A stretch of DNA of 64,000 nucleotides from Scenedesmus sp. PABB004 (taxonomy: Eukaryota), in NCBI GenBank assembly GCA_014905635.1, contig CM026547.1:1-64000 (forward strand). Direction: 5' to 3'. Position 1 is the stretch's first letter. Every line of letters begins with the position of its first letter. The notes below the pieces were generated by a model, which made no database searches, was not told the DNA's origin, and saw only the letters and a program-made list of their open reading frames with translations. This document shows positions 14,911-42,377 of the stretch, piece by piece. The position numbers were made by a program, and so were the translations under genes.

Positions 14911-15345
14911 CTGCCACGCACCACGCGCGGCGGCAGCCGGCTGTGACGCTCGCGCGTGGCGAGATGCGGCAGGGCGCGCGCGCGGGGCGCAGCGTGGGGG
15001 TCGACGCGCGGCTGGGTGTGCCCGGGCTGTGCAGCCTGGCCACTGCATCTGCATCGGTGCGTTGCGGCAACAGGGGTTGCGGTTGCAAGAGTTGAGTTTG
15101 AGCGAGCCCGCCGCCGGCCGCGAGCCAGCCAGCCAGCAGCCCCTCAGCCGCGACATGGCGGAGCTGGCAGCGGCCCGCACTCTAATACACGCCCGCCCGC
15201 CGCGCACCCGCGCGGGGGCCCGCGCTCCGGGCCCGATTGATACCGCGGTCAATGTCAAAAACAAACAACACCGCCCCTGATGGTACAGCCTCTCCCGCTT
15301 GTCTACACCGCGGCCGCACCGGCCTGCTGCGCCCCCGCCCAGCGC

Positions 15346-30087: not shown

Positions 30088-33000
30088 TCACGGCGCCTGC
30101 TGCTGCTGCTCCGGCTTGGCGCCGCTGGCGCCGCCGGCGCCGCCGCCGCCGCCGGCGCGCTCCGCCGACTCTGCGAGCCTGATGAGCTCCGCCAGCGGGA
30201 TGACCGCCTGGTCGGAGCCCTCGCGCTTGATCTCCAGCCTGGCAACACGCGGCGGCAGGGGCGGCGGCGGCGGCGCGCTCGGCGCGGGCACTCGGCGCGC
30301 GGCGCGCGCGCGCGTGGGGCGCGGCGGCGCGCGCGCGCTTTGTGCGCTGTGCGGTGCCGCGCCTGTCGAGCAGCGCGCGCAGGTCGTCGTCGTCGAGGTT
30401 TGCCTTGAGGAAGCGCAGCGCGTCGCTGAGCTCGCCCGCGCTGATGAGGCCGTCGTTGTCGAGGTCGATCACGTGCAGCGCCTCGCCTGCGTGGCAGGCA
30501 GCCCAGGGGGGGGGGGCGACGGGGGTGAGGAGGGTGAGGAGGCGTGGGCGAGGTGTGCGCCACCGCAGGCGGGGGAGGGCCGAGGCCTCCCAAGGGGCGG
30601 CGGCCGGCGCGCGGGCGGCGGGCGCGGGCGGCGGCGGTGTCGGCCCGCACCGATCGCCTCGTCGGCCTGGTCGAGCTCCTTCTCGAGGCGCGTGAGGATG
30701 CCCGCGATGTGCCCCTCCAGGCGCAGCGGCGCGCTCAGCTCGTCCGCGAGCGCGGCGGTCGTGTCCTCGGGCCGCACCGCGTGCAGGCTGCCGCCGGTGA
30801 AGGTCAGCGACGGGCTCGCCGTGCCGTGCGTGTCCTGCAGCGCGCTGATCTGGCTGCGCACCAGGTCCATGAACTTGGCCCGCTCCGTCGCCACGCCTGC
30901 GGGACAGACAGCAGCGGCGGCGCGCGGCGTGAGCGCTTGTGCGCGCGCTGGCCGGCCGCGCGCGCGCCGCCCCCGCCCGCGTCGCCCCCGCACCCGAGCT
31001 GGACGCGAGGACGGTGATGGCGTAGAGCAGCTGCTGCATGCGCCGCTCCCGCGCGTCGGTGAGGCGCGCGGCGCGCTGCTCCTCGCTGATGCCCTCCGCC
31101 GCGATGACGTCGCGCAGCGCGCTCGCGCTCGCCTCGCCCAGCACCGCGCTCGCGGCCGCCGTCGCGGCGGCGTGCTGCGCGGCGGCCGCGCCCGCCGCCG
31201 CGTCGGGGCGGGGCTCCGCCTCGAGCACGCGCTCCAGCCCGCCGCCGGCCACCGGCGCGGGGCCGCGGGCGCGTGGCCCGCGTGCGCGCCGGCCATGGAC
31301 GCGGGCTCCGCCGCGGCCGCCTCCACCTCGGCCGCCTGCGCCTCTGCCTGGATGAGCTTCTGCTCCTTCTGCATGAGGTGCAGCCGCTTCGCCAGCTCCT
31401 CAGCGCCTGCCGCGCCGCGCGCGGGGGGTGTGTGAGTGAGGAGGCGCCGCCGCGCGGGCGCGCGGGCGCGGCGCACGGGCATGTGCGGCACGCGGGCGCG
31501 CGGCGTGCGGCGCGCGGGTGGCGGCGCGCACTCGTGGTCGGCGCTGCGACCTCGAGGCCCACGTCCTTGATGACCTCCTCGGGCAGCGTGAGCAGCGTCT
31601 CCTTCACGCGCCCCAGCTCCTCCGCCGCGCCCGCCGCGCCCGCGGGCGCGGGCTTGGGCGCGCCGGTGGTGGTGAGCGTGAAGGCGCGGCTCAGCAGCAG
31701 CAGGCTGCTGGGCAGGCCGCGGTTGAGGGACAGGTCCAGCCAGTTCTGGGCGGGGGAGGGAGGGGGCGGGAGAGGGGAGGGGGAAGCGGGAGGTTGGCGC
31801 GCGCCAGCCGCCCGGCAGCGCGCTCAACAACAGGAGCACGCCGAGCTCGCGCAGCACGCAGCACTTGAGAGAGTGAGGGAGGGAAGGACGCAGACGTGCA
31901 CAGACGACAGAGGACGCCGACGCCCTGGCGGGTGGCCTTCAGGGGATGGTGTGTGTCTTGTCATGCGGTGTGTCAGGTCTATCAACTTTCGATTTGGTTC
32001 CGCAGCATCACCAGGCCGGCACGCAGGCACGCAGGCCACACCACGCAGGCACGCAGGCACGTCACACGCCCCCCCCCCCCCGCACCTGCATCTGGCGCCG
32101 CATGAAGGGCGCCGCGCCGTCGCCGTATGCGGCCTTCATGCCCCGCGTCTTGCACGCCGTGCGCAGCTCGTCGTCGGTCAGGCTCTCCAGGCCCTCCGCG
32201 CGGATGAGCAGGTCGTCCTGCACCGCGGCGCGCGCAGGGGCGGCGCGCGGCGGCGGCGGGGCGGGTGGTGAGGGCGGGCAGGCACGTGGCAGCGGCGGGG
32301 GCGGCGTCGCGCCCCGCACGGGCAGACGCGCGCGCCGCGCGTCGTGTGCGCCGCGCGCGCCGCGTGCGCGGCAGGCATGGCGCGCCTGCTTGAGGCCGTC
32401 GAGGTGGGAGCGCAGGCGGTTGCGCAGGAAGCCGTCGGTGCCAAACGGCGGGATGCCGAGCAGCTGGCACATCGACACGAGCTGCACGCGGTCGAGGTTG
32501 TCCAGCGTGAGCTCGTCGTTGAAGAGGCTCGCAAAGCGCACGAGCTCGTCGTTGGACACCTCCGCGCCCGCGCGCACCTGCGCGCCGCGCCGCGCCACGC
32601 CGCGCGCGCGCGCCGTCAGCGCTGCTGCTGCCCGGCCGCTGCCGCCGCCGCGCCGGCCCGCCGCGTCCGGTGCCGGCCCGCCGCTGCCGCCGCCGCGCCG
32701 GCCCGCCGCGTCCGGTGCAGGACCAGTGTCATGACAAAGCAGAAGCCACAGTGGCGACTTCAACTTCGTGATGACGCGGGTCCTGGACCCGACGCGGCGG
32801 GCCCCGGCGCCTGCCCGGCGGCGCGCGGGGGAGGGCGCGATGCCCCCCCCCCCCCCGCCCCCTCAGGCGGCGCCTCACCCGGTTGACAAAGGCGTACAGC
32901 TCCGCCGCGCTGGTCGACATCTCGCCCGTGCGCTTGCTCTTGATGTCCTTGGCCATCTCGGCCACCGTGTCCTGCGCGCGAGACGCCCCGACGGCACGTG

Positions 33001-36756: not shown

Positions 36757-37165
36757 GCAGGCGGCGGGCAGTCGTCGCAGGGGTGCTGTTACAGAGCAGG
36801 CCGGCTCGCGCCTCCACACTCCGCCCGCCGGGCTCAGCCACGGCAGCTGCACCAGTGTATTAGGCCCTCCGCCCGCGGTCAGAGAGACCGGCGGGCACGG
36901 CAATAGTTATTTCTGCTGCTGCGCAGTGTTTGGCAGCGGCCAGCGCGCGCGGTGCGTCGCAGCTGTCTTATGTCCCTGCAGGGCAGGCAGATAGACTCAT
37001 CAGATAAGCAAAAGGATGCAAAAACGCAAAGTTGGATATTCGAAAGGAACTCAGCCCATGTTGACCGTCAGCAAAACCGTGGCAGCACACGCGGCGCGCT
37101 CAAGCCGTCGTGCGACTTGTGGTCAACCATCCTGCTGCCCGGCGGCCGCCGCGGGGGCGGGGCGC

Positions 37166-40543: not shown

Positions 40544-41159
40544 CCGGAGAGCGCCGGCACAGCGTCGGCGGCTTCGTGGCGGGCGGCCGGAGCTCGCACT
40601 GCCGAACGTGGGCGGACTCACGGCGACCTCTCGATTTTGTCAACGCGCGAGTTCTTGCGACACTATAAAATGTTTGTGTGAACGCGGCAAAGCTTCCGAG
40701 CACCCGAGCCGGGCGATTAGGTGCCGCAGCGCCGCGCGGTGTGTGTGTCACCCGCTCGGTGAGGTCACCGGCGCGCTGGCCTGTCCGCGTCCGAAACGGC
40801 CGGTTCCAAATATCACAGTGGCACCGGAAAGCGTCTCAGCGCAGCAGGCCGGGTTTTGGACCGCCCAGCGCGGAGCCGGCCGTCGTACCCCGCCATCTCG
40901 CCATGCCGACCGCTCGCCGACCGCGTCGTCGTCGGTGTTTGCCGCCGCGTAAATCGCGCCCCGGCCTAAGCTCCAGCCTGACCGCGCGGTCAGGTCTGCT
41001 GTGCCGCGCACGCGAGCCGGCGCCGTCGGCTGCGCCGCGGGTGTCGTGGCGCGGCGCAGCCCACTCGCGGCCGCAGCCCGACCCTCGAGCCTTACCAAGC
41101 TCGCTTGCCGCCTCTCCCGGCCGCCGAGCCCAACCGCCCTCCGGCCGCGCTGGTCCGGC

Positions 41160-42377
41160 TCACGCGCCGAAGCCATAGTCGTCCAGCCCGCCGCCCCCGG
41201 CCCCGCGCCCGCCCGCGCCCGCGCCCCGCCGCTGCCGCGCGCCGCCGCCGCTGGCGCCGGCGGCGCCGCCGCTGGCGCCCGCGGCGCCGGGCGTGCGCGC
41301 CCGCACGCGGGTCGTCATCGCATGGCTGGGCGTCGCGGGCGCACGCGCGGCCGGGCCCTTGCCGCCGCCACCGCCGCCGCCGGCGGCGCGGCCCGCGACC
41401 AGCAGCTGCGAGCCGCCCCGCTCCGCGGCGGCTCGCTCGCGCTGCGCGGCGATGCGCGCCAGCAGGGCGCCGTCCTGCAGCTGCCAGTCGTACATGCCTG
41501 CGCGGGGGCGGCAGGGGGGCAGCGGCTCTGCCGCGCGGCGGTTTGCCGTGCGGGCGGCGCGCGCTGCCGGTCCCCCGCGCTGCCGATCCCCCCCGCGCGC
41601 CACGCACCCGGCATCCAGAGCAGCGTGCAGGCGGAGTCAAACACCCAGAAGCTGAGGAGCCCCAGCAGCGCCGGCACGAGCCAGCCGCCCTCGCCGCCGT
41701 GCGCGTCCGCGTGGCGCGCCGCGAGCGCGAGGCCGCGCAGGAGCTGCCAGAGGCGGTGGGGCCAGAAGAGCAGGGGCAGCACGGGCGTCATGACGCTGCG
41801 GTTGAGCACGCGCGTCTCGAGCGCGATCTGGGGCAGGAAGACCGCCAGGTACGGCCCCAGCGTCGCGGCCGCCAGGCCCGCGCTGCCGCCGCCGCCGCCG
41901 CCGCCGCGGCCGAGCGCGAGCGCGGCGCACAGCGCGGCGCCGGGCGCGAGCAGGCTGAGCAGCAGCGCGAGGCCGAGGTACCCGGGCGCAAAGCCCCGCG
42001 GCGTGACCTGCCGCCCGTCGCGCTCGACCCAGGCGCCGGGGTACGGCGCGGGCGGGCCGTCGCCGAGCTGCGCCGCCCTGCGCAGGCGGCGGCGCGGCGC
42101 GCGTGCGCGGCGGGCGCGCGTGCGCAGCGCGGCGCAGGGAGCAGCGCGCGGGCGCGCCCGCCGCCGCGCGCGCAGCTGCCGCTCGCCTGCTCTCCGCGTA
42201 GCACTGGGCGATCCACAGGAACGCCAGGGCGCCCGCCACGAACAGGGCATCAGTGGCGAAGAACGCCGCCGCCGCGCGCCACGGGCACGCGAGCGACGCC
42301 GGGCTGGCCAGCAGCCACAGCGCGACGGGCGGCGCGAGCCCGAGCACCACCATCACGGCGCCCGCAGCGGGCCACAT
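41160..42377 (-). CDS. Multi-pass membrane protein of unknown function
   Basis: Several hydrophobic helices (VMVVLGLAPPVALWLLA; FFATDALFVAGALAFLWI; YLGLALLLSLL; LLGLLSFWVF) over 3 exons; ends LDDYGFGA*. Confidence 0.7.

Follow-up and report, generated by a model that had tools for sequence, protein, structure and literature searches.

Why should an intron in a genome as GC-rich as this one contain a short segment so much richer in A and T, and does that segment encode an RNA with a function of its own? The window analyzed here, by which we mean the whole 64-kb stretch of DNA, has a mean G+C content of 0.780, against 0.548 (54.8%) for the 84 nucleotides at 31934..32017 on the minus strand. When 80-nt windows are ranked by G+C content, the 0.5th percentile falls at 55%, so that the element belongs to the lowest ~0.5%, in agreement with the AT-richer island described in the original prediction, which had read this island as an intronic box C/D snoRNA with an antisense guide to 18S rRNA. 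Our analysis indicates that 31934..32017 is likely a genuine, functional methylation-guide box C/D snoRNA, and that it is very probably a lineage-specific snoRNA of an ordinary kind.

The string of letters initially proposed, a terminal stem enclosing C, D', C' and D boxes, is present to the letter: minus-strand positions 32017..31934 read GGCCU G GUGAUGC UGCGGAACCAA AUCGAAAGUUGAUAG AC CUGA CACACC GCAUGA CAAGACACACACCAUCCC CUGA AGGCC, which corresponds to a 5-bp stem, box C, a 28-nt spacer, box D', CACACC, box C', an 18-nt spacer, box D, and the closing half of the stem. The 5' half of the stem, GGCCU (32013..32017), is followed by one unpaired G and pairs with the 3' half, AGGCC (31934..31938), and this GGCCU/AGGCC pairing is recovered in the MFE fold of the element as well as in its centroid fold. 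Box D, CUGA (31939..31942), directly adjoins the 3' half of the stem. The putative box C, GUGAUGC (32005..32011), departs from the consensus RUGAUGA solely at its last base. Taken together, these letters can be read as a kink-turn, including the 5-bp stem, a 3-nt bulge G-G-U composed of the unpaired G and the G-U of box C, a GA/GA step in which the GA of box C lies opposite the GA of box D, a U/U pair, and a G-C pair. The final C of box C counts against this reading, since the second stem II pair would then be a C/C mismatch. In this sense, box C is indeed non-canonical, as had been pointed out, although the departure had been given too much weight: a published U24 snoRNA of Brassica rapa has the same variant, GTGATGC, in its entry in the accessible part of the PMC5122169 supplement.

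The internal boxes are of unequal quality. Box D', CUGA (31973..31976), is perfect and is separated from the guide by two nucleotides, AC. The putative box C', GCAUGA (31961..31966), starts 6-8 nt after D' and is degenerate, and its assignment, made from the sequence, could also be placed in an alternative register as AUGAcaA; degenerate C' boxes are common among box C/D snoRNAs. The fold of the whole element shows no extra stability when compared with shuffled sequences (z = 0.00), which is usual for the box C/D class and thus constitutes neutral evidence. Collectively, the features of the class that we found in the candidate are the C and D boxes, a kink-turn terminal stem, a D'/C' pair, and an antisense element, the latter established on a proxy 18S rRNA.

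The genomic context is that of an intronic snoRNA. The candidate lies within a 340-nt minus-strand intron (31746..32085) that has GT..AG borders and a 3' pyrimidine tract; 68 nt separate it from the 5' splice site and 188 nt from the 3' one. The intron sequences on either side of the element have 78% and 73% G+C, compared with 55% in the element. Stop-to-stop frames on both sides of the intron match the Pfam LETM1_RBD domain on the minus strand (E values of 4e-25 and 8.8e-22), and an EF-hand is encoded further downstream on the same strand, beyond the LETM1_RBD frames. The upstream exon segment (32086..32256, minus strand), which ends in ...FMRRQMQ and falls within the LETM1_RBD match, aligns at its 32086 end with residues 132-165 of yeast Mdm38 (3skq; E 4.7e-4), the LETM1 orthologue. 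The downstream exon segment (31653..31745, minus strand), starting with NWLDLSLNRGLP, has Mdm38 residues 178-200 as its sole PDB match, with an E value of 1 that is weak but collinear with the upstream exon, and the two flanking exons meet at about Mdm38 residues 177/178. The alignments of the flanking exons, together with the GT..AG intron and pyrimidine tract between them, place the predicted snoRNA inside an intron and in the sense orientation of its host. Judging from these matches, the host is a mitochondrial LETM1-like gene with the snoRNA on the same strand; the original prediction had likewise placed it in a LETM1 intron, on the host strand. The accompanying reservation, that LETM1 would be an atypical snoRNA host, was over-weighted, because, as the accessible text of PMC7671301 indicates, intronic snoRNAs of algae ordinarily occupy protein-coding hosts of many different kinds.

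The most informative part of the element is the spacer upstream of box D'. As a proxy for the cytosolic rRNAs of this organism, we used 18S and LSU sequences from eukaryotic rDNA contaminating bacterial assemblies, at least 56 loci in total, eight of which were annotated with Rfam and three of which (L019, L027, and L012) include complete 18S genes of 1808 nt. Positions in the L019 gene can be equated with Arabidopsis numbering, since it has the right base at all ten of the ten Arabidopsis Nm positions that were checked. The putative D' guide (31979..31993, minus strand) occupies positions 3-17 upstream of D', and its 15 nucleotides pair perfectly with CUAUCAACUUUCGAU, positions 314-328 of the 18S rRNA in the proxy rDNA unit, which substantiates the 15-nt guide to a conserved 18S stretch, ending 2 nt before D', that had been described from the element itself. 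By the D+5 rule, the U at guide position 5 pairs with the A of CUAUC, or A316 of the proxy 18S in Arabidopsis numbering, the same adenosine, first in CUAUC, that had been named as the target. This residue corresponds to position 314 of the Rfam eukaryotic SSU model, an upper-case and therefore highly conserved base that is unpaired within a helix. The Rfam SSU consensus differs from plant-type 18S at a single position paired with the guide, where it has a g instead of A at 318, a difference that the guide U would still accommodate by forming a G-U pair. The predicted guide/18S duplex has an energy of -24.9 to -26.2 kcal/mol, which was matched by 1 of 100 shuffled spacers, and, if two guide nucleotides are allowed to bulge out, the pairing reaches 18 bp. 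We rejected an additional 6-nt pairing, ACCAUC/GAUGGU, which overlaps the primary site by 3 nt and is shorter than the 7-bp criterion given in the accessible text of PMC8053127.

Could this arrangement nevertheless be a chance resemblance in non-functional intron sequence, or the decaying relic of a dead snoRNA copy? The combination of boxes and stem is not rare by itself. A strict scan of both strands of the window for R-UGAUG-N followed by CUGA 45-160 nt downstream, with a flanking stem of at least 4 bp, returned four matches, but the three besides the candidate have 69-82% G+C, and the candidate is the only one of low G+C. Long antisense matches to rRNA are likewise frequent: the window contains 133 antisense matches of at least 12 nt to the proxy rRNAs, against a shuffle mean of 110, and five of at least 15 nt, against a shuffle mean of 2.9. 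However, the other four matches of at least 15 nt have 87-94% G+C (0.87-0.94), as chance predicts in a window of 78% G+C, and the snoRNA guide is the sole one with a G+C of 0.5 or less. Such a match, of at least 15 nt and with G+C <=0.5, was seen once in the window and in none of 100 dinucleotide-preserving shuffles, and it is in proper register with the internal CUGA that follows it. That an AT-rich 15-mer should lie 2 nt before an internal CUGA, in the only low-G+C box-plus-stem candidate, makes chance very unlikely. As for a dead copy, it would be expected to drift toward the 73-78% G+C of the flanking sequence, and we found neither an A-tail nor a target-site duplication as the mark of a retrocopy. 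Rather, a low-G+C island in a strongly GC-driven genome fits purifying selection.

The same scans yielded other candidates in the window. A box-plus-stem match at 42245..42363, with 79% G+C and a 13-bp pairing including three G-U pairs, was judged to be a chance occurrence. In a search for a second snoRNA in the 64-kb window we found none, and the matches from a relaxed guide scan were all either rich in G+C or lacking in boxes.

Homologue searches provide the remaining argument in favor of chance or decay. Rfam, which had been suggested as a check on the locus, returned no family match, so that the candidate receives no known-family assignment: the Rfam 15 covariance models gave no match at gathering score across the 64 kb, and, when E values up to 10 were admitted over the local 1 kb, no snoRNA family appeared, the sole match being to an unrelated riboswitch model (E 9.5). 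A scan of metagenome contigs for the pattern box C-guide-D' found four loci, none of which we accepted as a homologue. Two of them (L003 and L004) are nearly the same sequence and resemble coding regions. Another, L002, has boxes just 25 nt apart. The last, L001 (44% G+C), has C, D', and D-like boxes with a terminal stem that by eye comprises only 3 bp; its 18-bp pairing includes four G-U pairs and is in register for U317, the nucleotide next to A316. We regard L001 and L002, which are located on unrelated contigs of 42-44% G+C, as weak look-alikes. Likewise, the guide was not found in the accessible parts of the Ostreococcus snoRNA supplement of PMC7671301 or of the Arabidopsis snoRNA supplement of PMC8053127, nor was the guide 8-mer CGAAAGTT found in the accessible part of the PMC5122169 supplement, which includes 100 CD_CrCD entries. 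Weighing the lack of an Rfam match and of a homologue in the metagenome scan against the composition, register, and integrity of the element, we consider that a chance resemblance or decaying relic is an unlikely explanation for this locus.

A different question is whether a genuine C/D snoRNP encoded here would have its main role elsewhere than in methylation of A316, either as a chaperone that assists folding of the 5' domain of 18S rRNA or through a D guide acting on a non-ribosomal RNA. In support of such a role, the pairing, which reaches 18 bp when the 2-nt guide bulge is allowed, exceeds the ~10-14 bp typical of methylation guides, and the adenosine concerned is unmethylated in Arabidopsis. 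To our knowledge, neither yeast nor human 18S rRNA carries an Nm at the A316 equivalent. The Arabidopsis RiboMeth-seq data in the accessible part of PMC8053127 give A316 scores of 0.055, 0.069, and 0.187, relative to a threshold of 0.8, which classifies the residue as unmethylated; the field of previously assigned guides is empty for A316, and no Nm is reported there between G246 and G392 of Arabidopsis 18S. In line with these values, the site had not been recognized when it was first predicted, and, since the Arabidopsis equivalent is unmethylated, methylation at the A316-equivalent position would have no precedent. A literature search for an Nm map of green algal cytosolic rRNA found none among the accessible sources, and maps of rRNA modification in green algae are still largely predictions.

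The second spacer could also be taken to favor a target outside the ribosome. The D spacer, CAAGACACACACCAUCCC (31943..31960, minus strand), showed no contiguous pairing of at least 9 bp, with G-U pairs allowed and starts at positions 1-4, to the proxy mature 18S, 5.8S, and LSU rRNAs, and its two 9-mer pairings in the proxy rDNA are both within the intergenic spacer. The strongest duplex that it forms with 18S rRNA, at positions 1266-1282 (-18.2 kcal/mol), was equalled by 29 of 100 shuffled spacers. The description of this guide as an orphan therefore holds for the proxy mature rRNAs. On the other hand, the spacer is a (CA)-rich sequence of low complexity that pairs within the window only with (GT)n tracts, and many single-guide methylation snoRNAs carry one idle spacer. 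We conclude that the D spacer is probably either an orphan guide or simply a spacer, with no rRNA target. Given in addition that the D+5 register is exact and the D' box perfect, a snoRNP devoted mainly to functions other than A316 methylation appears quite improbable.

The insertion of a short rDNA fragment in antisense orientation into the intron, which would account for a 15-mer identical to antisense 18S, is scarcely credible, because the identity ends after 15 nt on both sides (the flanks ...AC-CUGA and ACCAA-... differ from antisense 18S) and neither the boxes nor the stem around the 15-mer are rDNA.

The preferred reading, that of a methylation-guide snoRNA, suggests the following sequence of events. 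By the standard intronic pathway, the snoRNA would be released from the spliced and debranched intron, and exonucleases would trim the RNA to its 5-bp terminal stem, at which the C/D kink-turn would be shielded by the core proteins, namely a Snu13/15.5K homologue, Nop56, Nop58, and fibrillarin. The D' spacer would then pair with the 18S rRNA over 15 bp, and fibrillarin would methylate the 2'-OH of the A316 equivalent, the A of CUAUC, whose partner is the guide nucleotide at position 5 before D'. The architecture, the sense placement in the intron, and the statistically rare 15-nt antisense match in proper register are seen in the sequence itself; expression of the RNA, its assembly into an RNP, and the actual methylation of its target are inferred.

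It is tempting to go further and to hypothesize that the snoRNA specifies a 2'-O-methyladenosine peculiar to this lineage, situated in an internal loop within the 5' domain of 18S rRNA, with a possible chaperone role and a D guide acting on a non-ribosomal RNA, although we regard this extended proposal as rather doubtful. On our reading, a very GC-rich genome of the green lineage gains an unannotated snoRNA gene together with a single predicted site of rRNA methylation, and the known workings of C/D snoRNAs are left unchanged. In practical terms, where a genome is this rich in G+C, a low-G+C island within an intron is a useful pointer to small structured RNAs under selection.

The candidate can be compared with box C/D snoRNAs from other members of the green lineage. 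The CrCD families of Chlamydomonas reinhardtii box C/D snoRNAs are reportedly those of Chen et al. 2008. Features shared with the Ostreococcus tauri C/D snoRNAs of groups B and C, as presented in the accessible text of PMC7671301, include a single-copy organization and, for some of them, an intronic location, together with predicted rRNA targets and, in those groups, no homologue outside a narrow algal lineage; lineage-specific snoRNAs of this sort are described there as numerous in Ostreococcus. The Ostreococcus tauri snoRNAs are backed by transcriptome and northern data, whereas the candidate is a prediction from sequence. With the Arabidopsis C/D snoRNAs of PMC8053127, the candidate has the D+5 rule in common: in the accessible part of that work, guides are mostly of 10-14 bp, to which the 15-bp guide comes close, and a duplex is accepted with a start as late as position 4, while that of the candidate starts at position 3. 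There are parallels, too, with Chlamydomonas reinhardtii, another GC-rich green alga, whose protein-coding genes likewise carry snoRNAs in their introns in the sense orientation. According to the accessible text of PMC7671301, Chlamydomonas snoRNAs are mostly organized in multi-copy intronic clusters, in contrast to the single copy that we found in the window. The CrCD snoRNAs in the accessible part of the PMC5122169 supplement, which measure 85-111 nt compared with 84 nt for the candidate, resemble it in having a 5-bp terminal stem immediately next to C and D and in the order and spacing of their boxes. The layout is nearly the same as that of CrCD06-1, an 85-nt RNA whose D', C', and D boxes are at 40, 56, and 77, the corresponding positions in the 84-nt candidate being 42, 52-54, and 76.

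The next-upstream intron of the LETM1-like gene that hosts the predicted snoRNA contains a hairpin with almost perfect pairing over about 55 bp (32690..32815), the loop-proximal portion of which forms a 59% G+C island. On the host strand this hairpin has a minimum free energy of -93.5 kcal/mol (z = -8.44), and none of 200 shuffled sequences was equally stable; on the opposite strand the value is -86.2 kcal/mol (z = -8.45). We also found that its outer arm is tandemly duplicated at 32645..32735, as a unit of about 45 nt with one directly adjoining repeat. The hairpin contains neither C/D nor H/ACA boxes, and no second copy is present within the 64-kb window. One possible reading of the element is an intronic hairpin resembling a pre-miRNA; another is a palindromic insertion.

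Beyond this locus, a C/D-like element lies at about 2960..3080 of L001, a metagenome contig (44% G+C), on the minus strand of the locus. Its guide pairs with the same 18S segment as that of the predicted snoRNA in the window, in a register shifted by one base, so that the predicted target is U317. Given a terminal stem of only 3 bp, as read by eye from the sequence, we regard this element as no more than a C/D-like candidate.

A 21-nt eukaryotic 18S motif was matched in at least 56 contigs (L005-L060) filed as bacterial or archaeal genome assemblies, and eukaryotic 18S/5.8S/LSU rDNA was confirmed in the eight of these that were annotated with Rfam, which points to contamination of the assemblies holding these contigs with eukaryotic DNA. 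Against a proxy LSU rRNA from such contaminant rDNA, a 119-nt, 79% G+C stretch of the window (42245..42363, minus strand) shows a 13-bp pairing, including three G-U pairs, directly upstream of a CTGA. This stretch also carries GTGATGG and a 5-bp flanking stem; its resemblance to a snoRNA is probably a chance likeness within coding sequence.

Three other low-G+C islands (41-55%), apparently intergenic, are located at 15220..15331, 36937..37119 and 40588..40736. One of them contains TATAAAA, none has a match in the Rfam scan of the 64-kb window, and all three look like promoter or UTR regions.

Finally, because a (CCCTAAA)n array of TTTAGGG-type telomere repeats occupies positions 1 to about 200, the start of the window is, on its sequence, the end of a chromosome. 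Telomere repeats of this type are consistent with an organism of the plant and green-algal lineage.
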